A stretch of 64,000 nt of DNA from Haplodiscus bocki (Eukaryota): assembly GCA_965655095.1 (NCBI GenBank), contig OZ296648.1:8494001-8558000 (forward strand), given 5' to 3'. Below the pieces are notes generated by a model. It made no database searches and was not told the DNA's origin. It saw only the letters and a program-made list of their open reading frames with translations. Within the stretch, counting starts at the first letter, position 1. Every line of letters starts with the position of its first letter. Both the position numbers and the translations under genes were made by a program. Positions 26,704 to 57,338 of this stretch are shown piece by piece.

Positions 26704-26854
26704 TGTCGTGTTGTTTTTGAGTTCAGTTGTTTAGTGAAAGAGTTTGAGATACTTTTTCATCTCGTGGTTTCACACCTTGCTTCCACACTTGATTTTCACA
26801 AAAAACACACGCAGCGAAAATGAATTGCATCGCTTTTTTGGTTTGCGTTCGCTT

Positions 26855-36631: not shown

Positions 36632-36637
36632 GCAGTG
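36632..36637 (+). repeat. Left 6-bp target site duplication GCAGTG
   Basis: Identical direct copy at 57333-57338, immediately outside the inverted termini. Confidence 0.9.
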
Positions 36638-37620
36638 AATAATATACTATATTGCGGATTTACCGGTAACTCCCCTGCGGGTCCTTACTAATAAATCCGA
36701 CAATATAGCCGTTCCCTACGCTTCGCTTCGGTCACTTATATTATTGCTCAGCTCTTTGAGCTTCGCCTTTCCTGACTCGCTTCTACGAAGCTCGTGGGAT
36801 GCTCGTCTCCGTCTCGCATAACTGATATACAATCACATACCATTATTTTCCACCACATAAAAACCATAGTTGAAATAAGCATGAATGTAAGGAAACGTGT
36901 ATATAAAAATCCACATTTATGTAAACGTAAAATTGTGAAGCAACGGTAAAACGTACTTGCACGTGTATTTTTATGTTAGTATTCTCTTTTCTATTTTGTC
37001 TCCTATAGCAGATCGGTATTTGTAGAATGACATCGATGAAGTTAAGGTATTGCCGCAGTGTTTGGGGTTCGCTGCTTAATACGTATCCCCAGTCGTTTGT
37101 CGTACATTGCCATGATGCTATAGGAGGAACTGTCCATGTCTTAATGCTTGAAAAAGCAGAATAGATCGACGGGGATATCCACCAGGAATGCTCACTCGAA
37201 GACAGCTGAAAAGCTCGACATGAAAGTTGGCCAGTGGATATTTTATCTTATTACGAAAACACGATTTCTGAGAAATATTCACCTTATGCCGACATACCTT
37301 AAACATGTAGAGATTATAAAATTTCAAGCTACAAATACAAATGATATACCATTAGAAAGCTCGTTAAAAGTTTAGTAAACCCTGAAAATTTCAGCTTTGT
37401 ATCTATTACCATCTTCGAGAAAATTGACAAAAACCTAAAATGTCGACATACCTTAAACATGTAGAGATTGTAAAATTTTGAGTTACAACAATGTGTGATA
37501 TACTTTTGGATAGCTTGTTGTAATAATAGTTTACCCTGAAAATTTCAACTTCGTATCTATTATAATTATTTGAATAAAAGTACGATGATTCAGAAATCAT
37601 TGTTAACAATAAAATTATTA
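36638..37620. promoter_or_regulatory. Left terminal non-coding region, putative replication origin (mirrored at 56347-57332)
   Basis: AATAAT terminal repeat, a cluster of GC-richer short hairpins at 36655-36820, and a degenerate direct repeat with ~154-bp period (37290 vs 37444). Confidence 0.55.
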
Positions 37621-37624
37621 TAAA

Positions 37625-37825
37625 TGATGATCGATGATGAGATATATGATTCAGATTTTGATGATTCTGATTTTGAAGATTTAGTTCATAGCGGTAAAGA
37701 TATACAAATTATTTATTTTGATAATATAGAACAATTTCAACAATCTGAAAAAACTTAATATAATTGGTGGGCTTAATCATAATTCAAATATCGCACAATA
37801 TATTATAATCAAACCAGGAAAATAA
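37625..37825 (+). pseudogene. Left-arm copy of the small acidic protein, frameshifted
   Basis: Mirror of 56143-56346 with a 2-bp deletion near 37750. Confidence 0.6.
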
Positions 37826-40800
37826 TTAAGAACTCCTTATTCTTCTATTTCTCATATTTTGATTATGGCATTGTCTACATATAGTTTTGTTTTTAATATA
37901 ATTATCAGGATTTATTACATTTTCACATTTACTACATTTTTTTATTGTATCTTTAACAGGTTTTTCTGTAACAATATTGTCTTCTGTTTGATAATACGGG
38001 AGCATGTAACCTAATTCATTTTCTGGTTTACGCTTTAATTTTTTTATTTCAACAGAGTATATAGCTATACGAGTTATTTTATTTAAACAATCTTTACAAC
38101 TGTTACTTATTTCACATTGAAAACAATTCATTTGAGGTTTAAGTAGGCATGATTTACATAGTTTGTTTTCATTACAAAGTTCACAATACGGTTTACGATG
38201 CGGTATTTTAATTCCGGCAAGTTCCCGTTTCCATTTTAGTTTAGATCTGTTTTCAATTGTTAATCCTTTTTCTAAATCAAGAAAACCTTTAAATGTTATA
38301 TCATTTATATTTTGGTTGAATCCTTTGAAAGTTGTTTTTTGTGATAAAACACCGTTTTCATCTATAACAATACAGTATTTGACTTTTGGAGCTAAAAACA
38401 ATCCATATTTGATACCCGCATTATCACCATAATCATTTTAGATTGCCAAAGACCTTTTCCTATTAAACCATTTTCATCCAAGATATTGTAATCGTTTTTG
38501 TGTATATATACACTATCGGTATCTCCATAGTATATTTTATTGTTTGTGAAACCATCTAATATTAAAATAACATCGTTCATTAATCTTTTTGAATGTGATA
38601 AAATCGTAGAGCCAAATTGAAATGGTTGGCTATTTATCTTTTTAGATATACCATTATCGTCGACACCTTCATGATCTACTATATTAACCATATAATTACC
38701 GTTTTCAAGAGGTATATAATTTTTAACTCTATCATCGTATTCTGTAAGCATCCAATTTTCTGTTACACATTTGTAATTTTCGGTAATATCTTGTCTAATA
38801 CAACTTCCATAACCACCGTTTACGGTATCTTTACACATTAATTGCAATATATTTTTACCTTGATTTTTATATTCATTACGTTTGTCTATCAAATCATGAA
38901 CATATTCGGTAAATGGATTGTAATCTAAATTATCACAGATAAATCCTTCTATAAATTCTAAAATAATACCTCCTATTCTAACAATTTGTTCAATATCAAC
39001 GCTAGTTAAATGCTGAGTTATATGACCATTTCGAAATCTATTTACACGCTCGAATTTGTTTTTTGACTCATTAAAGACTTCTTCGTTAACAGCTGAATGT
39101 TGTAATATTAAGTATTCAGGTTTATAATATTTGACTTTAAAAAATCCGGAATTGTTTAAGTTTTTCCATCCGTTATTGTTAAAGAGATCACATAAATAAT
39201 TACTGTCTTGTTTAGGATTGATAGCTATCGATGTTTCTATTTTAGGCCATGTTGATTTATGACACGACATAGCTGACGGATATAACGATGTATAATCACT
39301 GCTTACTAACAGATCAGACTTATCGATTTTGTTTAATTCTTTCGATATAGGTAAACTTGCTAGTTTTTCGTTAACATATTTTTCTTGTTCTTTAGTATCA
39401 ATTCGTCTATAATCAACATATCTCGATTCGTATTTCTTATTGTAATGTTCACGAACTTTATTGATTTGACGGTAATATATACTGAACAATGTTGATATTT
39501 CTTGATCTTTACCTAAATATTTTTCGAGAATGTCAACTATTTGATTAAAAGAAGACGAAACAAATTTACGGTTCAAAGCAACAACTCTTCCTCCATGTAC
39601 TGTTTTTCTAATGAAATCTCTAACGTATTTATTTTTTGGGGTATAAAACGTTTTTCCTGAAGCCTCCATATATTTACCTAACGTCGACCATGATAACGAC
39701 GATTGTGTTAACGAAGTTTTAAATGAAACACCAGTTATTTTTTGAATTTTGTTAGCGTGTTTAGCAACGAGCATACCTAACCCTAAAACATCATTAATCA
39801 AATACGGTTTCCAAAAACGTTCTTTTTCTGTATAGTTAGATAATGTTATATCACTATGTTCCATTTCAGTCTTTAAAAGTTGTGGTTGTATACCATAATC
39901 TTTTTGAATCTTTCTTAATGATCCTGATATATGTACTTTACTACAGACGAATTTCATGTATTGAGGTATTTCTTTATTATTGTTGTCATAAATAGTACCT
40001 ACTCTAAAAATTAGTTTCAAAATACCTCTAGATGTATGTATTATTTTTGGAAAATATGTTTTCGGGAGAGAATTTAATACAATAACGTTATCGAATCCAG
40101 AAGCGTTATGAGGTATTAGTTGATATTTATAACAAGATATTTTATAATTACCGTCTTTATCTTTGAAAAATTTAGGTTTTCCTTTGTAGTTTCTAACGAT
40201 AAAATTTATCATGTCCATTACAGGGTTTTTGTTTTTATAATCAAAAATGTGAACATTTTCTCTCTCGATTTTTAATTCGTCTTCAGATAAATTACCATTG
40301 TAACACTCCTTTAGACGATTAAGATGATAACAACCGGCAGCATATGGAACACAATATTGTTTATAATCAACGTTAGCTGTTTCAAGGTCAAAAGCAAATA
40401 CGGCATATAGACAATCTTTTTCGTTTGATATAGGAAATTTATATTCTTGAACCTGTTTGAGTATGTTATCAGATATTTGGTTATCTTCATATTTGAAATT
40501 GTCTTCTAATTCTTTTATGGCGTTAGTGAAAGAGGTGTTTTTTGTCTTCCATATCACACAGAAATGATTTTCATGGATAATTAAACAAAGTCTTCGTTCA
40601 GTAACATATCGAGGAAGAATTTCTTGTTGATTTATATTGTAAACACCGAGGTTGATGTTATATTTTTTACAAAATGGTTGAATTTTAGCAGAAGTCTTAA
40701 TGTTTTTGGTTGTTTTACTGTTTTTTATAAAATCATGATATTTTTTAGTAAAATCTTTTTTGTATATGAATTCAAGACATTTTCTGAAACATTCGTTTTC

Positions 40801-41407
40801 TTCAGGAATATAACATAAATTACCTCTATATTCAACAATCTTTTTAAAACTATCACAACCAGTACCATAATATGAACGACGAATTTTATTGAATGATTTG
40901 GTGTATTTAATAACTATTCCTGTAAAAGTGATTGCCACGCTTTCATCATATCTTTCATTGATTTTTTCTATTCTTTCAATCAAAGCATCTCTATTACTAA
41001 AGAAAGCATTTATCATGGAAGATTCTTTATCATTGATTTTTAATTCGCCTTTTAATATAAAAGGATATTCATCTGTTACATTTTCAAGTACCTTTATAAT
41101 ATCATCGTTCTCAAATTTGACTATGTTGTTTTCTATAATATTTAGATATTCTCCCAAATCAATTTCATCGTTATCGAATTTAATATCACTAAAATCGAAC
41201 GGATTAGTCTCACCATAACGCTCATTATCTCGAATTTTTTGGTTAATGTTGTTTAATTCAATTATTTTATTATTATGTCTGGTGACTAATTCGTTTTTGG
41301 AATCGTTTAAAACCTCGTTGTTTCTTGTTTGTGGTGTTTTTTATTTTATTATTTACTATTTCTATTCTGTGTTCCAATAATTCAATCTCTTCGATAATTT
41401 GTTCCAT
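37826..41407 (-). pseudogene. Left-arm pPolB, frameshifted
   Basis: Near-identical to 52558-56142. A 2-bp deletion near 41317 and a 1-bp deletion near 38438 split it into the 921-aa and 191-aa track ORFs. Confidence 0.92.
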
Positions 41408-41507
41408 TTAATAAAATATAAATCGTTGAATTAAAAAATTAAACAGGTTGAAAAAGTAGTATTTTAAATTAATTCATATAAGAATTCAATAATTTATTAT
41501 TAAATAA

Positions 41508-41807
41508 ATGAATGACCAAATACAAATAAATAAAATTTTTCGTCTATGCGGTCATGAAAGAGAGTATGATAACTATCACAGACTATATGTTGCTTGCAAA
41601 AAAAGCGCTAGTAGACGATGTGCTAAACATTATCAGAAAAACAGGGAAAAAATATTAGAAAAAGCTAAATTATATCGAGAAAACAATAAAGATAAATTAA
41701 AACAAAACCGAAAAACAGTTAGTTCATATAAAGATGATATACAAGATCTTTACAATCAGATTAACACCTTAACAGAGATGCTGAAATCTACCACATTAGT
41801 TACTTAG
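41508..41807 (+). CDS. Left-arm copy 1 of the 99-aa Zn-ribbon/basic coiled-coil protein (two Cys lost)
   Basis: Mirror of 52158-52457, with ICRLC changed to IFRLC and CKKC to CKKS. Confidence 0.65.
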   Translation: MNDQIQINKIFRLCGHEREYDNYHRLYVACKKSASRRCAKHYQKNREKILEKAKLYRENNKDKLKQNRKTVSSYKDDIQDLYNQINTLTEMLKSTTLVT

Positions 41808-41902
41808 AATGGTGTTGATTCGAGAATACAAAATAACAACAGAATCGTTAACAGTTCATTTTAAAAAAATAATATTGAAATAATAATTATCTCTTTTTAA
41901 AC

Positions 41903-42638
41903 ATGACAGGCCTGATGTGTCAAGTAACGTGTGCGCCGTGTGATTTAAAAATTGATGAAACGAAGTGGAAGGAACACTTATGTTCTGAAAAACATTTAAA
42001 ATATTGTAAAGGTGCTGACCAAAGTATTGCAATAAAATTCTTTGAAATGATTTTTGCAGCAAATCCAGAAAAAAAAGATATTCAATTCAAAAATTGAAAA
42101 GGCACTCGATTTCTGGCGTTTATATTTTTCGACAAAACTACCAAAAGAGAAATCTGATCTATTATGTAATGATTCATACGATAAAAAGGAAATAGAGAAA
42201 AATCTTGAAACCGATTTCAACGATTTTATATTAAAAGTAGTACCTATTATCGGAAAAAACTATTTTCCTTCATTGAAAGATAAAACATTTTGTGAAATTT
42301 GTAGTGTAGAAGTAAATATAACACTTCTTTATAAACATATTAATTCAAAAGAACACAAGCAAATCGAAAATTACCTTATTAAGAACAGCATGACATATTG
42401 TGAAGTTTGTAAAAAAGAGATAAGAAATGATGAATGGAGAGAACATAATATTTCAGAAAATCACTTAGAGAAAGAACAAAAAAATTATTGTAAAGTTTGT
42501 AAGACGAAATATAGTGTTGTAGGGTATGCGAATTCATATGATAGTTTCCAAGAAAAATGCAGATGGGCTGAAGTTAGTCACACAGCTAACAAGGATCACA
42601 AACTAAATGCAGAGAGATTTGATTTTTATGGTTGTTAA
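41903..42638 (+). CDS. Multi U1/matrin-type C2H2 zinc-finger protein split at an A8 run (copy 1)
   Basis: The 64-aa and 194-aa ORFs overlap at GAAAAAAAAG and carry repeated CxxC...H..S..H fingers. Confidence 0.7.
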
Positions 42639-42676
42639 ATCAGAAAATTTATAATGATGAGTACTTTTGTATATAA

Positions 42677-42967
42677 ATGAATAAAAGATTTTCATACGAT
42701 AATATGATTAAATCACGATCAATAGAACCAAGTGACATAATTAGAACCTTTAAACTAGATCGATGTTGTGATTTTATGGAAGAGAAATACAATAATCCTA
42801 GATTAACTCAAAAAGAAATTTGTAATCAGCTAGGATTTACTGATAGAACTATTAGACGATACAGAGATGATATTAAAATGGATAGTCCTTATAGAATAAA
42901 TAATAACAAAAAGAAAAAACCTAAACAACCAACAGATACTAAATCAGTTCCAAATAAGAAATCTTAA
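42677..42967 (+). CDS. HTH DNA-binding protein (copy 1); reading frame continues past TAA to 43135
   Basis: LTQKEICNQLGFTDRTIRRY helix-turn-helix and a basic KKKKPK patch. Confidence 0.7.
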   Translation: MNKRFSYDNMIKSRSIEPSDIIRTFKLDRCCDFMEEKYNNPRLTQKEICNQLGFTDRTIRRYRDDIKMDSPYRINNNKKKKPKQPTDTKSVPNKKS

Positions 42968-43197
42968 AACAATGTTATAAAAGGTGGTAATGTTTCTGAT
43001 ACCCACACATTATCTGGTAGAGAATTAATCGCTCATACTTTTCAGAATGATAAAGCAGACTCTATTTTAGAAAACAAACAGGAAGATAATAAAAAATATA
43101 TTACTATAGCTAGAAGAATGGTAGATGGTGTTTAAAAACACATATAATTGCATGAATATCAAATATAATTACTCATACACGAGTTTCTTATTATTAA

Positions 43198-43503
43198 ATG
43201 GATAAAATAGAACAAGAAATAAAACAAGATGAAAATACGATAAATGATATAGCAGAGAAATTAGAACTCGTCTCTAACACTAATATGATAACAAAAGAAG
43301 AACTTTTACAGAAATTTGTAGCTAAAGATGTTATAAAAAACAAGATGATTAATGTTGCTGGTCAAATGTTTATAGAATATGAGAAAGAATTAGATAATTC
43401 TAATAAAATAATCAAAGGATACGAAGATTATATCGGAGATGATAAAATCAGAAAGGATATATTAGATAACGTTTGTGGATTAAACAAAGTCTTCGTTCAG
43501 TAA
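43198..43503 (+). pseudogene. Truncated copy of the 131-aa helical protein at the duplication junction
   Basis: Nearly identical to 46094-46489 up to ...VCG, then reads into pPolB antisense. Confidence 0.8.
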
Positions 43504-44307
43504 CATATCGAGGAAGAATTTCTTGTTGATTTATATTGTAAACACCGAGGTTGATGTTATATTTTTTACAAAATGGTTGAATTTTAGCAGAAGTCATAAT
43601 GTTTTTGGTTGTTTTACTGTTTTTTATAGAAATCATGATATTTTTTAGTAAAATCTTTTTTGTATATGAATTCAAGACATTTTCTGAAACATTCGTTTTC
43701 TTCAGGAATATAACATAAATTACCTCTATATTCAACAATCTTTTTAAAACTATCACAACCAGTACGATAATATGAACGACGAATTTTATTGAATGATTTG
43801 CTGTATTTAATAACTATTCCTTTAAAAGTGATTGGCACGCTTTCATCATATCTTTCATTGATTTTTTCTATTCTTTCAATCAAAGCATCTCTTTTACTAA
43901 AGAAAGCATTTATCATGGAAGATTCTTTATCATTGATTTTTAATTCGCCTTTTAATATAAGAGGATATTCATCTGTTACATTTTCAAGTACCTTTATAAT
44001 ATCATCGTTCTCAAATTTGACTATGTTGTTTTCTATAATATTTAGATATTCTCCCAAATCAATTTCATCGTTATCGAATTTAATATCACTAAAATCAAAC
44101 GGATTAGTCTCACCATAACGCTCATTATCTCGAATTTTTTGGTTAATGTTGTTTAATTCAATTATTTTATTATTATGTCTGGTGACTAATTCGTTTTTGG
44201 AATCGTTTAAAACCTCGTTGTTTCTTGTTTGTGGTGTTTTTTATTTTATTATTTACTATTTCTATTCTGTGTTCCAATAATTCAATCTCTTCGATAATTT
44301 GTTCCAT
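43480..44307 (-). pseudogene. 5' fragment of pPolB in the duplicated unit
   Basis: N-terminal ~275 codons only, with frameshifts near 44217 and 43625. Confidence 0.88.
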
Positions 44308-44407
44308 TTAATAAAATATAAATCGTTGAATTAAAAAATTAAACAGGTTGAAAAAGTAGTATTTTAAATTAATTCATATAAGAATTCAATAAATTATTAT
44401 TAAATAA

Positions 44408-44703
44408 ATGAATGACCAAATACAAATAAATAAAATTTGTCGTCTATGCGGTCATGAAAGAGTATGATAACTATCACAGACTATATGTTGCTTGCAAAAA
44501 AAGCGCTAGTAGACGATGTGCTAAACATTATCAGAAAAACAGGGAAAAAATATTAGAAAAAGCTAAATTATATCGAGAAAACAATAAAGATAAATTAAAA
44601 CAAAACCGAAAAAGTTAGTTCATATAAAGATGATATACAAGATCTTTACAAACAGATTAACACCTTAACAGAGATGCTGAAATCTACCACATTAGTTACT
44701 TAG
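44408..44703 (+). pseudogene. Left-arm copy 2 of the 99-aa protein, frameshifted
   Basis: 2-bp deletions near 44460 and 44613 relative to the other copies. Confidence 0.75.
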
Positions 44704-44798
44704 AATGGTGTTGATTCGAGAATACAAAATAACAACAGAATCGTTAACAGTTCATTTTAAAAAAATAATATTGAAATAATAATTATCTCTTTTTAAAC

Positions 44799-45534
44799 AT
44801 GACAGGCCTGATGTGTCAAGTAACGTGTGCGCCGTGTGATTTAAAAATTGATGAAACGAAGTGGAAGGAACACTTATGTTCTGAAAAACATTTAAAATAT
44901 TGTAAAGGTGCTGACCAAAGTATTGCAATAAAATTCTTTGAAATGATTTTTGCAGCAAATCCAGAAAAAAAAGATATTCAATTTAAAAAATGAAAAGGCA
45001 CTCGATTTCTGGCGTTTATATTTTTCGACAAAACTACCAAAAGAGAAATCTGATCTATTATGTAATGATTCATACGATAAAAAGGAAATAGAGAAAAATC
45101 TTGAAACCGATTTCAACGATTTTATATTAAAAGTAGTACCTATTATCGGAAAAAACTATTTTCCTTCATTGAAAGATAAAACATTTTGTGAAATTTGTAG
45201 TGTAGAAGTAAATATAACACTTCTTTATAAACATATTAATTCAAAAGAACACAAGCAAATCGAAAATTACCTTATTAAGAACAGCATGACATATTGTGAA
45301 GTTTGTAAAAAAGAGATAAGAAATGATGAATGGAGAGAACATAATATTTCAGAAAATCACTTAGAGAAAGAACAAAAAAATTATTGTAAAGTTTGTAAGA
45401 CGAAATATAGTGTTGTAGGGTATGCGAATTCATATGATAGTTTCCAAGAAAAATGCAGATGGGCTGAAGTTAGTCACACAGCTAACAAGGATCACAAACT
45501 AAATGCAGAGAGATTTGATTTTTATGGTTGTTAA
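44799..45534 (+). CDS. Multi C2H2 zinc-finger protein split at an A8 run (copy 2)
   Basis: Same structure as 41903-42638 and 51327-52062. Confidence 0.7.
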
Positions 45535-45572
45535 ATCAGAAAATTTATAATGATGAGTACTTTTGTATATAA

Positions 45573-45863
45573 ATGAATAAAAGATTTTCATACGATAATA
45601 TGATTAAATCACGATCAATAGAACCAAGTGACATAATTAGAACCTTTAAACTAGATCGATGTTGTGATTTTATGGAAGAGAAATACAATAATCCTAGATT
45701 AACTCAAAAAGAAATTTGTAATCAGCTAGGATTTACTGATAGAACTATTAGACGATACAGAGATGATATTAAAATGGATAGTCCTTATAGAATAAATAAT
45801 AACAAAAAGAAAAAACCTAAACAACCAACAGATACTAAATCAGTTCCAAATAAGAAATCTTAA
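45573..45863 (+). CDS. HTH protein (copy 2)
   Basis: Identical 96-aa translation in all three copies. Confidence 0.7.
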   Translation: MNKRFSYDNMIKSRSIEPSDIIRTFKLDRCCDFMEEKYNNPRLTQKEICNQLGFTDRTIRRYRDDIKMDSPYRINNNKKKKPKQPTDTKSVPNKKS

Positions 45864-46093
45864 AACAATGTTATAAAAGGTGGTAATGTTTCTGATACCC
45901 ACACATTATCTGGTAGAGAATTAATCGCTCATACTTTTCAGAATGATAAAGCAGACTCTATTTTAGAAAACAAACAGGAAGATAATAAAAAATATATTAC
46001 TATAGCTAGAAGAATGGTAGATGGTGTTTAAAAACACATACAATTGCATGAATATCAAATATAATTACTCATACACGAGTTTCTTATTATTAA

Positions 46094-46489
46094 ATGGATA
46101 AAATAGAACAAGAAATAAAACAAGATGAAAATACGATAAATGATATAGCAGAGAAATTAGAACTCGTCTCTAACACTAATATGGTAACAAAAGAAGAACT
46201 TTTACAGAAATTTGTAGCTAAAGATGTTATAAAAAACAAGATGATTAATGTTGCTGGTCAAATGTTTATAGAATATGAGAAAGAATTAGATAATTCTAAT
46301 AAAATAATCAAAGGATACGAAGATTATATCGGAGATGATAAAATCAGAAAGGTTATATTAGATAAAGTTTGTGGAGATAACGTAAAAGAAGTTTGTTCTG
46401 AGAAAGATGAAGTTTATAAAAATAATTCTATTAACAGATTTATTAAAATTTTAAATAATAATAAACGAGAAATGCTATCAAACAAATAA
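46094..46489 (+). CDS. 131-aa predicted helical/coiled-coil protein, unknown function (left arm)
   Basis: TAAATG start; mirror of 50372-50767. Confidence 0.65.
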   Translation: MDKIEQEIKQDENTINDIAEKLELVSNTNMVTKEELLQKFVAKDVIKNKMINVAGQMFIEYEKELDNSNKIIKGYEDYIGDDKIRKVILDKVCGDNVKEVCSEKDEVYKNNSINRFIKILNNNKREMLSNK

Positions 46490-46613
46490 TTAATATTGAA
46501 AAAAGTATCAAAAATATTTTATTAATCTTTTTATATGAATGATATAGATTTTTATAATATTGTAATTGATATATTGCTTCGTTTGCTATATTGTTAACAA
46601 TTTCTGTTTTCAT
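46443..46613 (-). CDS. 56-aa protein with C-terminal hydrophobic anchor (left arm)
   Basis: Mirror of 50245-50418 with an in-frame 3-bp deletion. Confidence 0.45.
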   Translation of the reverse strand: MKTEIVNNIANEAIYQLQYYKNLYHSYKKINKIFLILFSILIICLIAFLVYYYLKF

Positions 46614-46775
46614 TTATCTTTTCTTATTATGTGTTTTTATTATCATTGAATTAGTACACGAGTTTTTTAAAACGTTACTAGCATGCCCTTGAGATCTAAT
46701 ATGGTTTTGATAATTGTCAGGTAAAACAGATATATGACAAACACCACAATAAATTCTGTTTTGTGTACAAGGCAT
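46614..46775 (-). CDS. 53-aa single C2H2 finger protein (left arm)
   Basis: Mirror of 50083-50244. Confidence 0.6.
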   Translation of the reverse strand: MPCTQNRIYCGVCHISVLPDNYQNHIRSQGHASNVLKNSCTNSMIIKTHNKKR

Positions 46776-46809
46776 TTTATTATTAAGATAATTTTTTTCA
46801 ATTTTTAGT

Positions 46810-47217
46810 TCATATCTTTATCCTTATATATGCATACCCACCTTGGCAAAAGACATATTCTCCCAAAGTTATTCCCATAACACTATATAACTTTTCTAAC
46901 ACTGCTTTATCTTCTATATTTGATTCTCTATCCTCCTGATTACAGAGTCTTAATAACAAAATTTCAGAACCATTATGTTTTACTTTTGTTTGGTTACTTT
47001 TTGTAATATTTTTAACGTTTGAAAAGTCTGTTTTTACGCTATCATTCGATTCAAGAGATAGCTTATTCATACTACATGTGAGATCATGATTATTACAACT
47101 TTTTTTCATAACATTAATATAATGTCCTTTGGATTTCAAATGATTCGAATAATTATTAGGAATATAAGATTTATTACAATCACTACAGTAAATTCTGTTG
47201 TTTTGAGCACAATACAT
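46810..47217 (-). CDS. 135-aa U1/matrin-type C2H2 finger protein (left arm)
   Basis: RIYCSDCNKSY...YSNHLKSKGH. Confidence 0.7.
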   Translation of the reverse strand: MYCAQNNRIYCSDCNKSYIPNNYSNHLKSKGHYINVMKKSCNNHDLTCSMNKLSLESNDSVKTDFSNVKNITKSNQTKVKHNGSEILLLRLCNQEDRESNIEDKAVLEKLYSVMGITLGEYVFCQGGYAYIRIKI

Positions 47218-47316
47218 TTTATTAATTCAGATAATTTATTTCAATTATGAATAAGTAATAGTGATTAGAAATTTCAAAATATCTGAATCATACAGTTTTC
47301 ATTGATTTAAATAACC

Positions 47317-47859
47317 ATGCTGAAGTACTGCAATGGTTGTAAAAGAGATTTAGGGATTGATAATTTCTATTCCTATAAGAAAAGTATTTGTAAACATTGT
47401 TTAAATAAAAAAGTTAAATGTGGTTATTGTGATAGGGAATTTAATAGTACTAATTTATCCAAACACATAAAGCAGAGACATAGTACTTACGTTTGTACTT
47501 ACAATAATAGTACTTCTAATAAGACAGTCAAAAATATTAGTACTTCTAATAAGACAGACAAAAATAATATTACAGATGAAAAAAACGAACCTTTATATCC
47601 AACAATAGGAGATGGTCTATATCTTAATAATTATAAAAAATTAATGAAAGATAAAATAAATAATTTAGATATAAAAACTCAAGATAAAATAAATAGAATT
47701 CTTACTAAAAATAGAATGCTACACGATAAAATAAAAAATAATACAATAACTATGAGAGAAGAAAAACAATACGAGAATAATCTAAACAAACTAAAAGATT
47801 TGGATTATTTCGATGAAAGAGTTTGTAAGATACTTTTAAAATACAAGTATCTTGATTAA
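47317..47859 (+). CDS. 180-aa C4 + C2H2 zinc-finger protein (left arm)
   Basis: CNGC...CKHC followed by CGYC...HIKQRH. Confidence 0.7.
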   Translation: MLKYCNGCKRDLGIDNFYSYKKSICKHCLNKKVKCGYCDREFNSTNLSKHIKQRHSTYVCTYNNSTSNKTVKNISTSNKTDKNNITDEKNEPLYPTIGDGLYLNNYKKLMKDKINNLDIKTQDKINRILTKNRMLHDKIKNNTITMREEKQYENNLNKLKDLDYFDERVCKILLKYKYLD

Positions 47860-47860
47860 G

Positions 47861-48330
47861 TTTGATCTAGCCAGATTTTTGTTAAAAGTATTTGATCGGC
47901 CAAGATTTATGTTTAAAGTATTTTGATCGAACAAGATTTATGTTTAAAGTATTTGATCGAACAAGATTTATGTTTAAAGTATTTGATCGAACAAGATTTT
48001 TATTTAAAGTATTTTGATTGAACAAGATTATGTTTAAAGTATCTGATCGAACAAGATTTTTGTATAAAGTATTTGATTGAACAAGATTTTGTTAAAAGTA
48101 TTTTATTCAAACAAGATTTTTATTTAAAATATTTGATCGAACAAGACTTATGTTAAAAGTATTTTGATTGAACAAGATTTATGTATAAAGTATTTTGATC
48201 GAACAAGATTTTTGTATAAAGTGTTTGAATAAGATTTATGTATAAAGTATTTGATCGAACAAGATTATGTTAAAAGTATTATGATCGAACAAGATTATGT
48301 TAAAAGTATTTTGATCGAACAAGATTAATG
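47861..48330 (+). repeat. Tandem array, ~16 x ~30 bp (TTTGATCGAACAAGATTTATGTTTAAAGTA), left of centre
   Basis: Directly visible head-to-tail units of 26-31 bp with no unique spacers. Confidence 0.92.
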
Positions 48331-48390
48331 TCAAAGATTATTCCAAAACAGATAAGTATAATTAAAATTACACAAATTGTTACATGAGCT

Positions 48391-48497
48391 TATATTTCGG
48401 ACAGGGGCGGACACATTGTAATTATATAAGTGTGATAATGCAAAATATATATACAATTATTTGTTTATTCTAGTGTCGGCGCAGTGTCGGAAATTTG
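48391..48497. other. 107-nt central spacer of the palindrome, itself an imperfect hairpin
   Basis: Perfect arm symmetry stops at ...TACATGAGCT (48390) and resumes at AGCTCATGTA (48498). Inside, ATTTCGGACA pairs with TGTCGGAAAT, CGGACAC with GTGTCGG and ATAAGTGT with ACAATTAT, each with a mismatch. Confidence 0.85.
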
Positions 48498-48557
48498 AGC
48501 TCATGTAACAATTTGTGTAATTTTAATTATACTTATCTGTTTTGGAATAATCTTTGA

Positions 48558-48997
48558 CATTAATCTTGTTCGATCATAATACTTTTAACATAATCTTGTT
48601 CGATCATAATACTTTTAACATAATCTTGTTCGATCAAATACTTTATACATAAATCTTATTCAAATTTTTTATACAAATATCTTGTTCGATCAAAATACTT
48701 TATACATAAATCTTGTTCGATCAAAATACTTTAAACATAATCTTGTTCAATCAAAATACTTTTAACATAAGTCTTGTTCGATCAAATATTTTAAATAAAA
48801 ATCTTGTTTGAATAAAATACTTTTAACAAAATCTTGTTCAATCAAATACTTTATACAAAAATCTTGTTCGATCAAATACTTTAAACATAAATCTTGTTCG
48901 ATCAAATACTTTAAACATAAATCTTGTTCGATCAAAATACTTTAAACATAAATCTTGGCCGATCAAATACTTTTAACAAAAATCTGGCTAGATCAAA
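48558..48997 (-). repeat. Inverted copy of the ~30-bp tandem array (~15 units), right of centre
   Basis: Reverse complement of 47861-48330 with unit gain/loss. Confidence 0.92.
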
Positions 48998-48998
48998 T

Positions 48999-49541
48999 TT
49001 AATCAAGATACTTGTATTTTAAAAGTATCTTACAAACTCTTTCATCGAAATAATCCAAATCTTTTAGTTTGTTTAGATTATTCTCGTATTGTTTTTCTTC
49101 TCTCATAGTTATTCTATTATTTTTTATTTTATCGTGTAGCATTCTATTTTTAGTTAGAATTCTATTTATTTTATCTTGAGTTTTTATATCTAAATTATTT
49201 ATTTTATCTTTTATTAATTTTTTATAATTATTAAGATATAGACCATCTCCTATTGTTGGATATAAAGGTTCGTTATTTTCATCTGTAATATTATTTTTGT
49301 CTGTCTTATTAGAAGTACTATTGTTCTTGACTGTCTTATTAGAAGTACTATTATTGTAAGTACAAACGTAAGTACTATGTCTCTGCTTTATGTGTTTGGA
49401 TAAATTAGTACTATTAAATTCCTTATCACAATAACCACATTTAACTTTTTTATTTAAACAATGTTTACAAAAACTTTTCTTATAGGAATAGAAATTATCA
49501 ATCTCTAAATCTCTTTTACAAGCATTGCAGTACTTCAGCAT
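48999..49541 (-). CDS. 180-aa C4 + C2H2 zinc-finger protein (right arm)
   Basis: CNAC...CKHC and CGYC...HIKQRH; intact in both arms. Confidence 0.7.
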   Translation of the reverse strand: MLKYCNACKRDLEIDNFYSYKKSFCKHCLNKKVKCGYCDKEFNSTNLSKHIKQRHSTYVCTYNNSTSNKTVKNNSTSNKTDKNNITDENNEPLYPTIGDGLYLNNYKKLIKDKINNLDIKTQDKINRILTKNRMLHDKIKNNRITMREEKQYENNLNKLKDLDYFDERVCKILLKYKYLD

Positions 49542-49640
49542 GGTTATTTAAATCAATGAAAACTGTATTATTCAGATATTTTGAAATTTCTAATCACTAT
49601 TACTTATTCATAATTGAAATAAATTATCTGAATTAATAAA

Positions 49641-50048
49641 ATGTATTGTGCTCAAAACAACAGAATTTACTGTAGTGATTGTAATAAATCTTATATTCCT
49701 AATAATTATTCGAATCATTTGAAATCCAAAGGACATTATATTAATGTTATGAAAAAAAGTTGTAATAATCATGATCTCACATGTAGTATGAATAAGCTAT
49801 CTCTTGAATCGAATGATAGCGTAAAAACAGACTTTTCAAACGTTAAAAATATTACAAAAAGTAACCAAACAAAAGTAAAACATAATGGTTCTGAAATTTT
49901 GTTATTAAGACTCTGTAATCAGGAGGATAGAGAATCAATTATAGAAGATAAAGCAGTGTTAGAAAAGTTATATAGTGTTATGGGAATAACTTTGGGAGAA
50001 TATGTCTTTTGCCAAGGTGGGTATGCATATATAAGGATAAAGATATGA
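49641..50048 (+). CDS. 135-aa U1/matrin-type C2H2 finger protein (right arm)
   Basis: CSDC...HLKSKGH; TAAAATG start; divergent from the 180-aa gene across 99 bp. Confidence 0.7.
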   Translation: MYCAQNNRIYCSDCNKSYIPNNYSNHLKSKGHYINVMKKSCNNHDLTCSMNKLSLESNDSVKTDFSNVKNITKSNQTKVKHNGSEILLLRLCNQEDRESIIEDKAVLEKLYSVMGITLGEYVFCQGGYAYIRIKI

Positions 50049-50082
50049 ACTAAAAATTGAAAAAATTTATCTTAATAATAAA

Positions 50083-50244
50083 ATGCCTTGTACACAAAAC
50101 AGAATTTATTGTGGTGTTTGTCATATATCTGTTTTACCTGACAATTATCAAAACCATTTTAGATCTCAAGGACATGCTAGTAACGTTTTAAAAAACTCGT
50201 GTACTAATTCAATGATAATAAAAACACATAATAAGAAAAGATAA
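50083..50244 (+). CDS. 53-aa C2H2 finger protein, paralog of the 135-aa N-terminus (below ORF-track cutoff)
   Basis: MPCTQNRIYCGVCHISVLPDNYQNHFRSQGH aligns with MYCAQNNRIYCSDCNKSYIPNNYSNHLKSKGH. Same upstream motif. Confidence 0.65.
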   Translation: MPCTQNRIYCGVCHISVLPDNYQNHFRSQGHASNVLKNSCTNSMIIKTHNKKR

Positions 50245-50418
50245 ATGAAAACAGAAATTGTTAACAATATAGCAAACGAAGCAATATATCAATTACAATA
50301 TTATAAAAATCTATATCATTCACATAAAAAGATTAATAAAATATTATTTTTGATACTTTTTTCAATATTAATTATTTGTTTGATAGCATTTCTCGTTTAT
50401 TATTATTTAAAATTTTAA
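50245..50418 (+). CDS. 57-aa tail-anchored membrane protein candidate (below ORF-track cutoff)
   Basis: MKTEIVNNIANEAIYQLQYYKNLYHSHKKINKILFLILFSILIICLIAFLVYYYLKF. The ATG directly follows the previous stop (TAA-ATG). Confidence 0.45.
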   Translation: MKTEIVNNIANEAIYQLQYYKNLYHSHKKINKILFLILFSILIICLIAFLVYYYLKF

Positions 50419-50767
50419 TAAATCTGTTAATAGAATTATTTTTATAAACTTCATCTTTCTCAGAACAAACTTCTTTTACGTTATCTCCACAAACTTTATC
50501 TAATATATCCTTTCTGATTTTATCATCTCCGATATAATCTTCGTATCCTTTGATTATTTTATTAGAATTATCTAATTCTTTCTCATATTCTATAAACATT
50601 TGACCAGCAACATTAATCATCTTGTTTTTTATAACATCTTTAGCTACAAATTTCTGTAAAAGTTCTTCTTTTGTTACCATGTTAGTGTTAGAGACGAGTT
50701 CTAATTTCTCTGCCATATCATTTATCGTATTTTCATCTTGTTTTATTTCTTGTTCTATTTTATCCAT
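50372..50767 (-). CDS. 131-aa helical protein, unknown function (right arm)
   Basis: TAAATG start; conserved in both arms. Confidence 0.65.
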   Translation of the reverse strand: MDKIEQEIKQDENTINDMAEKLELVSNTNMVTKEELLQKFVAKDVIKNKMINVAGQMFIEYEKELDNSNKIIKGYEDYIGDDKIRKDILDKVCGDNVKEVCSEKDEVYKNNSINRFIKILNNNKREMLSNK

Positions 50768-50997
50768 TTAATAATAAGAAACTCGTGTATGAGTAATTAT
50801 ATTTGATGTTCATGCAATTATATGTGTTTTTAAACACCATCTACCATTCTTCTAGCTATAGTAATATATTTTTTATTATCTTCCTGTTTGTTTTCTAAAA
50901 TAGAGTCTGCTTTATCATTCTGAAAAGTATGAGCGATTAATTCTCTACCAGATAATGTGTGGGTATCAGAAACATTACCACCTTTTATAACATTGTT

Positions 50998-51288
50998 TTA
51001 AGATTTCTTATTTGGAACTGATTTAGTATCTGTTGGTTGTTTAGGTTTTTTCTTTTTGTTATTATTTATTCTATAAGGACTATCCATTTTAATATCATCT
51101 CTGTATCGTCTAATAGTTCTATCAGTAAATCCTAGCTGATTACAAATTTCTTTTTGAGTTAATCTAGGATTATTGTATTTCTCTTCCATAAAATCACAAC
51201 ATCGATCTAGTTTAAAGGTTCTAATTATGTCACTTGGTTCTATTGATCGTGATTTAATCATATTATCGTATGAAAATCTTTTATTCAT
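50998..51288 (-). CDS. HTH protein (right arm); frame continues past TAA to 50830
   Basis: HTH motif LTQKEICNQLGFTDRTIRRY; TAAATG start. Confidence 0.7.
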   Translation of the reverse strand: MNKRFSYDNMIKSRSIEPSDIIRTFKLDRCCDFMEEKYNNPRLTQKEICNQLGFTDRTIRRYRDDIKMDSPYRINNNKKKKPKQPTDTKSVPNKKS

Positions 51289-51326
51289 TTATATACAAAA
51301 GTACTCATCATTATAAATTTTCTGAT

Positions 51327-52062
51327 TTAACAACCATAAAAATCAAATCTCTCTGCATTTAGTTTGTGATCCTTGTTAGCTGTGTGACTAACTTCAGCCC
51401 ATCTGCATTTTTCTTGGAAACTATCATATGAATTCGCATACCCTACAACACTATATTTCGTCTTACAAACTTTACAATAATTTTTTTGTTCTTTCTCTAA
51501 GTGATTTTCTGAAATATTATGTTCTCTCCATTCATCATTTCTTATCTCTTTTTTACAAACTTCACAATATGTCATGCTGTTCTTAATAAGGTAATTTTCG
51601 ATTTGCTTGTGTTCTTTTGAATTAATATGTTTATAAAGAAGTGTTATATTTACTTCTACACTACAAATTTCACAAAATGTTTTATCTTTCAATGAAGGAA
51701 AATAGTTTTTTCCGATAATAGGTACTACTTTTAATATAAAATCGTTGAAATCGGTTTCAAGATTTTTCTCTATTTCCTTTTTATCGTATGAATCATTACA
51801 TAATAGATCAGATTTCTCTTTTGGTAGTTTTGTCGAAAAATATAAACGCCAGAAATCGAGTGCCTTTTCATTTTTTAAATTGAATATCTTTTTTTTCTGG
51901 ATTTGCTGCAAAAATCATTTCAAAGAATTTTATTGCAATACTTTGGTCAGCACCTTTACAATATTTTAAATGTTTTTCAGAACATAAGTGTTCCTTCCAC
52001 TTCGTTTCATCAATTTTTAAATCACACGGCGCACACGTTACTTGACACATCAGGCCTGTCAT
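51327..52062 (-). CDS. Multi U1/matrin-type C2H2 finger protein split at an A8 run (right arm)
   Basis: CAPC..WKEHLCSEKH, CEIC..KHINSKEH, CEVC..WREHNISENH and CKVC..HTANKDH. Confidence 0.7.
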
Positions 52063-52157
52063 GTTTAAAAAGAGATAATTATTATTTCAATATTATTTTT
52101 TTAAAATGAACTGTTAACGATTCTGTTGTTATTTTGTATTCTCGAATCAACACCATT

Positions 52158-52457
52158 CTAAGTAACTAATGTGGTAGATTTCAGCATCTCTGTTAAGGTG
52201 TTAATCTGATTGTAAAGATCTTGTATATCATCTTTATATAAACTAACTGTTTTTCGGTTTTGTTTTAATTTATCTTTATTGTTTTCTCGATATAATTCAG
52301 CTTTTTCTAATATTTTTTCCCTGTTTTTCTGATAATGTTTAGCACATCGTCTACTAGCGCATTTTTTGCAAGCAACATATAGTCTGTGATAGTTATCATA
52401 CTCTCTTTCATGACCGCATAGACGACAAATTTTATTTATTTGTATTTGGTCATTCAT
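52158..52457 (-). CDS. 99-aa Zn-ribbon/basic coiled-coil protein (right arm, intact)
   Basis: CRLC...CKKC followed by YQKNREKILEKAELYRENNKDK; TAAATG start; divergent from pPolB across 100 bp. Confidence 0.7.
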   Translation of the reverse strand: MNDQIQINKICRLCGHEREYDNYHRLYVACKKCASRRCAKHYQKNREKILEKAELYRENNKDKLKQNRKTVSLYKDDIQDLYNQINTLTEMLKSTTLVT

Positions 52458-52557
52458 TTATTTAATAATAATTTATTGAATTCTTATATGAATTAATTTA
52501 AAATACTACTTTTTCAACCTGTTTAATTTTTTAATTCAACGATTTATATTTTATTAA

Positions 52558-55500
52558 ATGGAACAAATTATCGAAGAGATTGAATTATTGGAACACAGAA
52601 TAGAAATAGTTAATATTAAAATAAAAAACACCACAAACAAGAAACAACTCGAGGTTTTAAACGATTCCAAAAACGAATTAGTCACCAGACATAATAATAA
52701 AATAATTGAATTAAACAACATTAACCAAAAAATTCGAGATATTGAGCGTTATGGTGAGACTAATCCGTTTGATTTTAGTGATATTAAATTCGATAACGAT
52801 GAAATTGATTTGGGAGAATATCTAAATATTATAGAAAACAACATAGTCAAATTTGAGAACGATGATATTATAAAGGTACTTGAAAATGTAACAGATGAAT
52901 ATCCTTTTATATTAAAAGGCGAATTAAAAATCAATGATAAAGAATCTTCCATGATAAATGCTTTCTTTAGTAATAGAGATGCTTTGATTGAAAGAATAGA
53001 AAAAATCAATGAAAGATATGATGAAAGCGTGCCAATCACTTTTAAAGGAATAGTTATTAAATACAGCAAATCATTCAATAAAATTCGTCGTTCATATTAT
53101 GGTACTGGTTGTGATAGTTTTAAAAAGATTGTTGAATATAGAGGTAATTTATGTTATATTCCTGAAGAAAACGAATGTTTCAGAAAATGTCTTGAATTCA
53201 TATACAAAAAAGATTTTACTAAAAAATATCATGATTTTATAAAAAACAGTAAAACAACCAAAAACATTATGACTTCTGCTAAAATTCAACCATTTTGTAA
53301 AAAATATAACATCAACCTCGGTGTTTACAATATAAATCAACAAGAAATTCTTCCTCGATATGTTACTGAACGAAGACTTTGTTTAATTATCCATGAAAAT
53401 CATTTCTGTGTGATATGGAAGACAAAAAACACCTCTTTCACTAACGCCATAAAAGAATTAGAAGACAATTTCAAATATGAAGATAACCAAATATCTGATA
53501 ACATACTCAAACAGGTTCAAGAATATAAATTTCCTATATCAAACGAAAAAGATTGTCTATATGCCGTATTTGCTTTTGACCTTGAAACAGCTAACGTTGA
53601 TTATAAACAATATTGTGTTCCATATGCTGCCGGTTGTTATCATCTTAATCTTCTAAAGGAGTGTTACAATGGTAATTTATCTGAAGACGATATAAAAATC
53701 GAGAGAGAAAATGTTCACATTTTTGATTATAAAAACAAAAACCCTTTAATGGACATGATAAATTTTATCGTTAAAAACTACAAAGGAAAACCTAAATTTT
53801 TCAAAGATAAAGACGGTAATTATAAAATATCTTGTTATAAATATCAACTAATAGCTCATAACGCTTCTGGATTCGATAACGTTATTGTATTAAATTCTCT
53901 CCCGAAAACATATTTTCCAAAAATAATACATACATCTAGAGGTATTTTGAAACTAAGTTTTAGAGTAGGTACTATTTATGACAACAATAATAAAGAAATA
54001 CCTCAATACATGAAATTCGTCTGTAGTAAAGTACATATATCAGGATCATTAAGAAAGATTCAAAAAGATTATGGTATACAACCACAACTTTTAAAGACTG
54101 AAATGGAACATAGTGATATAACATTATCTAACTATACAGAAAAAGAACGTTTTTGGAAACCGTATTTGATTAATGATGTTTTAGGGTTAGGTATGCTCGT
54201 TGCTAAACACGCTAACAAAATTCAAAAAATAACTGGTGTTTCATTTAAAACTTCGTTAACACAATCGTCGTTATCATGGTCGACGTTAGGTAAATATATG
54301 GAGGCTTCAGGAAAAACGTTTTATACCCCAAAAAATAAATACGTTAGAGATTTCATTAGAAAAACAGTACATGGAGGAAGAGTTGTTGCTTTGAACCGTA
54401 AATTTGTTTCGTCTTCTTTTAATCAAATAGTTGACATTCTCGAAAAATATTTAGGTAAAGATCAAGAAATATCAACATTGTTCAGTATATATTACCGTCA
54501 AATCAATAAAGTTCGTGAACATTACAATAAGAAATACGAATCGAGATATGTTGATTATAGACGAATTGATACTAAAGAACAAGAAAAATATGTTAACGAA
54601 AAACTAGCAAGTTTACCTATATCGAAAGAATTAAACAAAATCGATAAGTCTGATCTGTTAGTAAGCAGTGATTATACATCGTTATATCCGTCAGCTATGT
54701 CGTGTCATAAATCAACATGGCCTAAAATCGAAACATCGATAGCTATCAATCCTAAACAAGACAGTAATTATTTATGTGATCTCTTTAACAATAACGGATG
54801 GAAAAACTTAAACAATTCCGGATTTTTTAAAGTCAAATATTATAATCCTGAATACTTAATATTACAACATTCAGCTGTTAACGAAGAAGTCTTTAATGAG
54901 TCAAAAAACAAAATCGAGCGTGTAAATAGATTTCGAAATGGTCATATAACTCAGCATTTAACTAGCGTTGATATTGAACAAATTGTTAGAATAGGAGGTA
55001 TTATTTTAGAATTTATAGAAGGATTTATCTGTGATAATTTAGATTACAATCCATTTACCGAATATGTTCATGATTTGATAGACAAACGTAATGAATATAA
55101 AAATCAAGGTAAAAATATATTGCAATTAATGTTTAAAGATACCGTAAACGGTGGTTATGGAAGTTGTATTAGACAAGATATTACCGAAAATTACAAATGT
55201 GTAACAGAAAATTGGATGCTTACAGAATACGATGATAGAGTTAAAAATTATATACCTCTTGAAAACGGTAATTATATGGTTAATATAGTAGATCATGAAG
55301 GTGTCGACGATAATGGTATATCTAAAAAGATAAATAGCCAACCATTTCAATTTGGCTCTACGATTTTATCACATTCAAAAAGATTAATGAACGATGTTAT
55401 TTTAACATTAGATGGTTTCAAAAACAATAAAATATACTATGGAGATACCGATAGTGTATATATACACAAAAACGATTACAATATCTTGGATGAAAATGGT

Positions 55501-56142: not shown

Positions 56143-56343
56143 TTATTTTCCTGGTTTGATTATAATATATTGTGCGATATTTGAATTATGATTAAACCCA
56201 CCAATTATATTAAGTTCTTTTTCAGATTGTTGAAATTGTTCTATATTATCAAAATAAATAATTTGTATATCTTTACCGCTATGAACTAAATCTTCAAAAT
56301 CAGAATCATCAAAATCTGAATCATATATCTCATCATCGATCAT
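56143..56343 (-). CDS. Small acidic protein (~66 aa), tail-to-tail with pPolB
   Basis: MIDDEIYDSDFDDSDFED... Its stop codon abuts the pPolB stop. The left-arm copy starts at TAAATG. Confidence 0.55.
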   Translation of the reverse strand: MIDDEIYDSDFDDSDFEDLVHSGKDIQIIYFDNIEQFQQSEKELNIIGGFNHNSNIAQYIIIKPGK

Positions 56344-57332
56344 CAATTATAATAATTTTATTGTTAACAATGATTTCTGAATCATCGTACTTTTATTCTA
56401 ATAATTATAATAGATACGAAGTTGAAATTTTCAGGGTAAACTAATATTACAACAAGCTATCCGAAAGTATATCACACATTGTTGTAACTCAAAATTTTAC
56501 AATCTCTACATGTTTAAGGTATGTCGACATTTTAGGTTTTTGTCAATTTTCTCGAAGATGGTAATAGATACAAAGCTGAAATTTTCAGGGTTTACTAAAC
56601 TTTTAACGAGCTTTCTAATGGTATATCATTTGTATTTGTAGCTTGAAATTTTATAATCTCTACATGTTTAAGGTGTGTCGACATAATGTGAATATTTCTC
56701 AGAAATCGTGTTTTCGTAATAAGATAAAATATCCACTGGCCAACTTTCATGTCGAGCTTTTCAGCTGTCTTCGAGTGAGCATTCCTGGTGGATATCCCCG
56801 TCGATCTATTCTGCTTTTTCAAGCATTAAGACATGGACAGTTCCTCCTATAGCATCATGGCAATGTACGACAAACGACTGGGGATACGTATTAAGCAGCG
56901 AACCCCAAACACTGCGGCAATACCTTAACTTCATCGATGTCATTCTACAAATACCGATCTGCTATAGGAGACAAAATAGAAAAGAGAATACTAACATAAA
57001 AATACACGTGCAAGTACGTTTTACCGTTGCTTCACAATTTTACGTTTACATAAATGTGGATTTTTATATACACGTTTCCTTACATTCATGCTTATTTCAA
57101 CTATGGTTTTTATGTGGTGGAAAATAATGGTATGTGATTGTATATCAGTTATGCGAGACGGAGACGAGCATCCCACGAGCTTCGTAGAAGCGAGTCAGGA
57201 AAGGCGAAGCTCAAAGAGCTGAGCAATAATATAAGTGACCGAAGCGAAGCGTAGGGAACGGCTATATTGTCGGATTTATTAGTAAGGACCCGCAGGGGAG
57301 TTACTGGTAAATCCGCAATATAGTATATTATT

Positions 57333-57338
57333 GCAGTG
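57333..57338 (+). repeat. Right 6-bp target site duplication GCAGTG
   Basis: Matches 36632-36637. Confidence 0.9.

Follow-up and report, generated by a model that had tools for sequence, protein, structure and literature searches.

The genome of Haplodiscus bocki contains, within the 64,000-nucleotide stretch analysed here (the window; contig OZ296648.1, positions 8,494,001 to 8,558,000), an element with the ends of a protein-primed replicon, flanked by short direct repeats and without an encoded integrase. How such an element was inserted, how it may be copied and what its ends are related to are the questions that this locus raises. The sequence-only reading had proposed a pPolB origin with non-canonical AA...TT ends that matches the adenovirus core origin, integrated in trans by a helper integrase.

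Insertion site and empty allele

The 20-nt end AATAATATACTATATTGCGG begins at 36638 on the forward strand and at 57332 on the reverse strand, and both ends are bordered by GCAGTG in the same orientation (Table 1), just as the sequence-only reading had described them. These are its only 2 matches in the 64-kb window when up to 3 mismatches are allowed; shuffled sequences are expected to give 0. An empty allele with a single GCAGTG, which had been named as something to look for, was found in 4 of 4 public runs (2 samples from 1 study, one run possibly being the source of the assembly), where a contig joins the left flank through one GCAGTG to window positions 57341-57362. Filled and empty junctions were both present in runs X2 to X4; the pieces from X1 showed the empty junction only. 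The GCAGTG pair is a true 6-bp target-site duplication (TSD) and, as the empty allele demonstrates, the insertion is polymorphic. The flank haplotypes at window 36484-36621 differ at 7 of about 138 bases, and the insertion lies on one haplotype.

Palindromic layout and gene content

As listed in Table 1, the element is a palindrome over its full length of 20,695 bp, or about 17.8 kb when the left-arm duplication is subtracted. Its arms are 99.2% identical over 6,847 bp and 98.0% identical over 4,931 bp. They meet at an asymmetric centre of 81 bp, and there is no unique interior between short TIRs. The 96-aa helix-turn-helix (HTH) gene is the most consistently retained gene among the palindromes examined. 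A homologue search with the pPolB gave 72 matches, none with an informative name, so the protein could be assigned to no host or clade; a PDB sequence search with it returned nothing significant.

Table 1. Features of the palindromic element and its borders (window coordinates).
Feature	Position	Strand	Basis or remark
Left TSD copy, GCAGTG	36632..36637	+	Single copy in empty allele
Whole palindromic element	36638..57332	.	Arm-to-arm alignment
(AAT)2 terminal repeat, left	36638..36643	+	Variant of the (AGT)2 repeat of Polintons (PMC8097293, in part); jump-back initiation likely starts here
Outer ~0.9 kb	36638..37570	+	Common to the ~1-1.3-kb TIRs of full-length Polintons
Subterminal stem-loop, nt 10-71	36647..36708	+	z -4.8; compensatory changes; nt 10 is the first paired base
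Left-arm pPolB copy	37826..41410	-	Frame broken near 38,435 and near 41,340
2.9-kb tandem duplication, left arm	40580..46375	.	Copies 99.2% identical
30-bp tandem repeat array, ~15 copies	47873..48331	+	TRF
Central loop, asymmetric, AT-rich, incompletely paired	48404..48484	.	Family-wide conservation
Mirror 30-bp tandem repeat array, ~14 copies	48562..48985	-	TRF
180-aa zinc-finger ORF	48999..49541	-	Weak C2H2 matches below cut-off; mirror 47317-47859
135-aa Cys/His-rich ORF	49641..50048	+	Mirror 46810-47217
131-aa ORF, no known family	50372..50767	-	dN/dS 0.05-0.15 between copies; mirror 46094-46489
96-aa helix-turn-helix ORF	50998..51288	-	36-49% identity to helper HTH
Multi-zinc-finger ORF, 195 aa stop to stop	51327..51914	-	ORF and domain search
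99-aa zinc-binding ORF	52158..52457	-	ORF and domain search
Right-arm pPolB, 1,194-aa open frame	52558..56142	+	PF03175, E 7e-13, above cut-off; start context TAAATG
(AAT)2 terminus, right	57327..57332	-	Sequence match
Right TSD copy, GCAGTG	57333..57338	+	Sequence match

The lack of an encoded integrase held up under search. Pfam found neither an rve integrase nor a helicase family in 9 element ORFs, the small ORFs matched no integrase in Pfam or NCBIfam, and tblastn of the element and the window, with INT and MCP taken from the family itself, detected nothing at E<=0.01. With the family ATPase, the sole tblastn match was a spurious one of 36 aa within the C-terminus of pPolB. A small ORF might nevertheless encode an unrecognised integrase or resolvase of the element's own, the conserved 131-aa ORF (for which the Atlas returned nothing and IMG/VR no relative) being the candidate. 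We find this hardly credible, given that the small ORFs lack any Pfam or NCBIfam integrase match, that several mobile copies (L143, L145, L239 and most of the Rep-type loci described below) do without the 131-aa ORF and that the TSD is as long as in elements that do carry rve.

On the host side, an ORF at window 22444-23001 (+) has a weak glycosyl hydrolase 47 match (E 1e-3, below the cut-off). Dispersed host repeats unrelated to the element lie at window 3990-4227 and 26854-27091, and further ones at 24462-24556, 32651-33380 and 34897-35155.

Full-length Polintons with the same ends

Across the 1.5-Gb genome, 506 exact copies of the 20-nt end were counted, against 0 in the control. Twenty of the 21 other plus/minus pairs among the first 100 matches listed were analysed, a pair of 27.8 kb being omitted. 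An rve integrase was present in all 20, which supplies the integrase-bearing element with the same ends that the sequence-only reading had called for, and a double-jelly-roll MCP in 19. Their TIRs measure about 0.3-1.3 kb where BLAST aligned them, and the interior is unique. All 20 carry a pPolB, merely 29-41% identical to that of the window. Same-end full-length elements thus combine pPolB, rve integrase, DJR capsid, A32 ATPase (with a Pfam score near the cut-off), TIRs of about 1 kb and a 6-bp TSD. The 356-, 364-, 282- and 178-aa ORFs of these helpers received no Pfam or NCBIfam assignment when an adenain-like protease and a minor capsid protein were sought. AA...TT ends on a pPolB replicon, as the sequence-only reading had them, are conserved.

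When TSD lengths were tabulated for these pairs, a direct 6-bp TSD was found in 17 of 20, and one further pair was off by a base in a homopolymer; the flanks are inverted in the other two and also in one of the 17. Pairs of the G10 type (see below) had a 6-bp TSD in 8 of 8. Overall, inverted flanks occur in 2 of the 22 palindromes with both ends located and in 4 of the 24 full-length elements, which points to mis-assembly or rearrangement at some ends. The loci with inverted-copy flanks instead of a TSD are L045/046, L047/048, L057/058, L157/158, L101/103 and L145/146, either by mis-assembly or by conversion.

A looser pattern (nt 1-7 fixed, with GCGGA downstream) matched 4,323 Polinton-type ends genome-wide against 173 in the control. 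This number is far higher than in vertebrates, for which copy numbers reach 287 at most (PMC8097293, in part). Full-length Polintons with the same ends are abundant in this genome, as judged by sequence, and the common ends and TSD length indicate that the window element was likely integrated in trans by the integrase of such a helper.

A family of mirror-image elements

A 2-kb interior probe, with 40 of 1,042 candidates scored, matched inverted pairs at many loci. All 8 pairs that were fetched are palindromes with arms 94-99% identical. Ten single-arm matches were followed, and every one of them runs into an N gap at the centre or close to it; many copies are therefore incomplete. The end AATAATAAAC occurs 134 times in the genome, and 10 pairs of it comprised 6 palindromes and 4 full-length Polintons. 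The centre motif gave 109 matches genome-wide (control, 1); 27 of the 30 inspected are surrounded by an inverted repeat that is symmetric and spans 200 bp or more, and 3 are not. Tracing 10 centres outward gave 5 clear palindromes, 1 element with mirrored genes and 1 with unlike arms; the remaining 3 were interrupted by gaps.

In total, 27 other loci (8 + 6 + 5 + 8) are palindromic by arm-to-arm BLAST. At E<=1e-5 their arms contain neither INT nor MCP nor any of the helper core ORFs; a short ATPase match of 35-50 bits occurs in three. Both ends were located in 22 palindromes, with 18 perfect 6-bp TSDs, 2 with a single mismatch and 2 inverted flanks. The median length is 17.3 kb for palindromes (n=17) and 18.2 kb for helpers (n=24), a comparison that is partly ascertained, as helpers and some palindromes were chosen by end pairing at 13-20 kb. 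The family members are integrase-less, capsid-less palindromes of 14-19 kb, and the window element is one of more than 100 mirror-image elements in this genome. Their 195-, 131-, 135- and 180-aa ORFs and central loop are absent from 24 full-length elements, apart from short weak zinc-finger matches elsewhere.

Some loci are unusual. At L225/L226 (G000:C1:92.29 Mb) two polymerase subtypes flank one centre, and the arms are unlike (82% identity in the core, 66% in the polymerase), either as a hybrid or through a mis-join. L121 and L123 (G000:C6:4.36 and 3.82 Mb) are the arms of one palindrome with the TSD TCGCTG inside a Polinton integrase gene, separated by scaffold gaps at the centre. L172-L177 (G000:C2:41.19 Mb) have six centre motifs in 12 kb in mixed orientation, forming a hairpin-junction array.

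Replicase evolution and exchange

A 1.1-kb pPolB segment was used to build a tree of 39 rows, with one deleted arm omitted and a midpoint root only. In all 14 copies the arms group as sisters, 13 times with starred support, and the palindromes span three deep lineages. Compared with the window copy, 11 of 13 copies have a pPolB dN/dS of 0.13-0.28, and the nearest two have 0.46; between the arms of 14 copies it is 0.47-2.37, with a median of 0.92. At the sequence level, pPolB is under purifying selection between copies and evolves neutrally between arms. The sisterhood of the arms and this contrast in dN/dS imply that the arms were identical at insertion and have decayed since, like LTRs.

Three integrase-bearing elements with a window-type pPolB nest among the palindromes and do not make up a clade (3 changes, of which at least 2 are forced). 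Given this nesting and a midpoint-only root, the tree does not fix the direction of pPolB exchange. The outer 0.26-0.3 kb or so of the window copy is of the helper type, unlike that of its nearest palindromic relatives, and its polymerase is of the palindrome type; in sequence terms it is a recombinant of the two. L235/236 have the palindrome core with a helper-type pPolB. L233/L234 and L239/L240 have the window's core, a third, distant pPolB, canonical AGTAGT ends and 6-bp TSDs; inside this third pPolB type, L240:4571-6955 has a weak endonuclease VII match.

In a second group of palindromes (L221/L222; L271-L286) no pPolB of their own is intact, and there is a 783-aa ORF, which at L221/L222 (G000:C1:15250957-15267927) is Rep_trans-like and sits on the palindrome core. 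Its structural model (pLDDT 86) resembles the Rep_trans rolling-circle initiators RepDE 4cwe/4cij (E ~1e-3), as well as inovirus Reps (E 7e-5 to 1e-3) and OB folds, with low TM-scores. A PDB sequence search with this ORF found nothing significant, and its Atlas leads were all sub-threshold. Homologues with 33-41% identity occur in Tritrichomonas. The model gives moderate support to a predicted Rep_trans-fold nickase. Among 150 scored matches to the ORF, 102 form at least 51 further convergent pairs and 0 divergent ones. The 8 pairs fetched are all palindromes, one with the window's exact 20-nt ends, and their centre differs from that of the window. An intein/LAGLIDADG-like ORF adjoins the Rep-like gene at L221:1203-1997. 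By sequence and model, then, replicases appear to be interchangeable on the palindrome core, which may carry any of three pPolB types or the predicted nickase.

These data bear on two other origins for the palindromes. They might have formed in place after integration of a full-length Polinton, one half being copied over the other, and arm ends derived from helpers (helper pPolB or a 165-aa ORF) in L235/236, L275/276 and L279/280 would suit this idea. For the family as a whole it is ruled out by the private core, that is, the four ORFs and central loop missing from the 24 full-length elements. In addition, one centre is conserved across deep lineages (between three pPolB lineages the central 230 bp, with about 70% A+T and incomplete pairing, keep 70-93% identity), there is selection between copies, and the empty allele makes the window site a polymorphic insertion. 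We regard an origin in place as very improbable.

The mirror symmetry might also be an assembly artefact from fold-back reads, as the N gap at the centre of 10 of 10 single arms and the inverted flanks at 6 of 46 end pairs could suggest. Here the flanks differ, the TSD is direct and non-palindromic, and both junction alleles are seen in independent contigs. The arms are 1-6% different with a neutral signature, and instead of turning at random the palindromes have one conserved asymmetric loop as their turning point. An artefact is thus barely credible at all. The selection pattern, conserved centre and empty allele lead us to reject both a fold-back artefact and a single rearrangement in place.

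The centre of the palindrome

The poxvirus concatemer resolution sequence has the consensus T5-6 N7-9 YAAAW, and TAAATG is a poxvirus late promoter. The centre might mimic a poxvirus concatemer junction, with a large DNA virus acting as helper that would resolve the dimer into hairpin-ended monomers and transcribe the genes. The pPolB, HTH, 131-aa and 99-aa genes all begin at TAAATG. Like the vaccinia telomere, which is an AT-rich mismatched hairpin beside tandem repeats (PMC8956199, in part), the centre is AT-rich, incompletely paired and flanked by tandem repeats. Unlike a poxvirus junction, it has no resolution sequence of the above consensus in any of 18 central segments scanned, and the other end of the element is protein-primed. 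TAAATG is not enriched overall in the right arm (17 against 14.7 expected). In 19 palindrome loci 57 of the 153 ORFs have their ATG preceded by TAA, and in 40 helper loci 224 of 382 do, counts to be read with the preference of the ORF caller for an in-frame TAA ahead of the first ATG. No helper virus was seen, and a genome search for a Pox_A22 resolvase gave no match, its control likewise matching nowhere. The idea of a poxvirus-like junction is doubtful, though compatible with the best explanation given below, to which it would add a layer. By analogy, the TAAATG starts and the telomere-like centre suggest possible replication alongside a poxvirus-type virus.

The terminal sequence

In human adenovirus the pol-pTP site AATAATATACC occupies nt 8-18, behind CATCAT (Table 2 of PMC6414723, in part). 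The similarity of letters on which the sequence-only reading had relied is real: the first 10 nt of the element equal 10 of the 11 letters of this site, both replicons are protein-primed and both have a terminal triplet repeat. Also, AATAATATA, with 9 of the 11 adenovirus letters, is kept in 3,746 of the 4,323 ends, of which the first 7 letters were fixed by the search pattern. What does not stand is homology. The letters are at nt 1-10 of the element, 7 nt out of register and without the CATCAT leader, and the 9-mer ATAATATAC is expected 0.9 times per shuffled window, at least 2 copies being found in 21 of 100 shuffles. Conservation across relatives, which had been proposed as the check, is poor at nt 10: C is found in just 1,027 of the 4,323 ends (24%), against G in 2,719 (63%).

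Position 10 is, moreover, the first paired base of a subterminal hairpin (nt 10-71). Among 31 distinct ends, two-sided changes occur at 5 of its 21 pairs, which 0 of 500 shuffles reach, in a shuffle that ignores kinship. The base at nt 10 co-varies with its partner: of 30 C-type ends 29 have a C-G pair there, and of 30 G-type ends 27 have a G-C pair. Nucleotides 1-9 are able to pair with an inverted copy about 100 nt inward. Type-B ends lack the terminal hairpin (z about 0), so it is not universal.

The closest pPolB relatives of the element end in AATAATAAAC or AATAATAACC, the nearest ones, at 97% identity, in AATAATAAAC; other family members end in AGTAGT. Vertebrate Polintons have 6-bp terminal repeats, (AGT)2, (AG)3 and (AC)3A, that are tied to jump-back initiation (PMC8097293, in part), a set that does not include (AAT)2. 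Because C10 is in the minority, nt 10 co-varies with its stem partner and the relatives end in AATAATAAAC or AGTAGT, the end of the element is best read, from its sequence, as an (AAT)2 version of the Polinton repeat. The adenovirus-like letters are likely this terminal repeat plus the foot of the subterminal hairpin. Homology of the ends with the adenovirus core origin, together with a like mode of action, is in our judgement very improbable.

A proposed life cycle

We put at roughly three in four the probability that the element, an integrase-less and capsid-less palindrome with its own pPolB, is a snap-back satellite of Polintons inserted by a Polinton integrase. This satellite reading draws on the TSD and empty allele, the same-end helpers with INT, capsid and ATPase, the private genes, the conserved centre and the pattern of selection. 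Outside the chromosome, pPolB and a terminal protein would initiate at (AAT)2 by jump-back. The displaced strand would fold on itself into a duplex of about 9 kb with one protein-capped end and one mismatched hairpin end, and copying past the hairpin would restore the mirror dimer of about 17-18 kb, equalising the arms in each cycle. This dimer would offer two Polinton-type ends for insertion by the helper integrase. Helper capsids probably package it, since the lengths match (median 17.3 against 18.2 kb, in the partly ascertained sample described above). We infer both integration and packaging in trans from the matching size and TSD length and from the common ends. The public runs, which consist of contigs and are blind to molecule ends, showed neither a hairpin nor a dimer as a free molecule.

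A single crossover with a helper could swap the outer end or the replicase, a change that would spread to both arms in the cycle that follows. Such a crossover followed by copying would account for helper-type ends on a palindrome-type polymerase, as in the window copy.

Relation to known elements

Like Polintons/Mavericks (adintoviruses), which have pPolB, a 6-bp TSD, a terminal 6-bp simple repeat and a size of about 17 kb (PMC10748475 and PMC8097293, in part), the element has all four of these properties, and it shares its outer TIR sequence with the full-length copies of this genome. Nematode Polintons swap pPolB within a conserved chassis (PMC10748475, in part), and the palindromes do likewise. 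The element differs in having no integrase, capsid or ATPase, and in an inverted repeat that spans its full length, where Polinton TIRs measure 46-1,500 bp. To judge by sequence, it would work like a non-autonomous Polinton derivative, yet it falls outside the Polintons because it has no integrase, no virion module and no unique interior.

Transpovirons are capsid-less linear satellites of about 7 kb with TIRs, an internal tandem repeat, zinc-finger or HTH genes and helper-virus promoters (PMC11788076, in part). The element likewise has TIRs and an internal tandem repeat, and one of its arms, at 7-9 kb, has genes of like kinds. Transpovirons encode a helicase and are non-palindromic, whereas the element has a pPolB or Rep-like replicase, a central hairpin and a chromosomal insertion with TSD. 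AAV snap-back defective genomes are also self-complementary and subgenomic, with one type of terminus and dependence on the full genome (PMC8235507, in part). These arise anew from their parent, whereas the palindromes are old lineages with private genes and a fixed centre, under purifying selection and integrated in the germ line.

No whole-element palindromic Polinton satellite was found in the paper listings searched, and a palindromic family or an (AAT)2 end may be on record in Repbase, subscription journals or the founding Polinton/Maverick papers. The parts of PMC10748475, PMC8097293, PMC8502044 and PMC11788076 consulted make no mention of palindromes, and those in the consulted part of bioRxiv 10.64898/2026.07.28.741278 are terminal ones of 52 nt. 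The palindromes are likely a new variant of Polinton-associated mobile DNA. A wider proposal, whose odds we judge to fall a little short of even, is that they represent an undescribed class of eukaryotic mobile DNA. In these hairpin-dimer satellites a Polinton end of the protein-primed kind would be combined with a hairpin telomere, and the replicase would be freely exchangeable, being one of three pPolB types or a rolling-hairpin nickase of the Rep_trans fold; for integrase and capsids they would depend on Polintons. They would form the third tier of a large-virus, Polinton and satellite system in an animal germ line, shuttling polymerases and ends between Polintons.

Palindromes of this kind break assemblies at their centres and escape screens in which an integrase or capsid gene is a requirement. 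What is understood of Polinton replication and integration comes mainly from sequence, and satellites that retain the ends, replicase and hairpin reveal which cis signals are key: the 6-bp terminal repeat, the subterminal repeats and unit length. They also give indirect evidence for an extrachromosomal strand-displacement phase and for size-limited packaging. Turnover of the Polinton replicase has been reported, unexplained (PMC10748475 and bioRxiv 10.64898/2026.10.13.758929, both in part), and a satellite lineage offers a concrete route for it.
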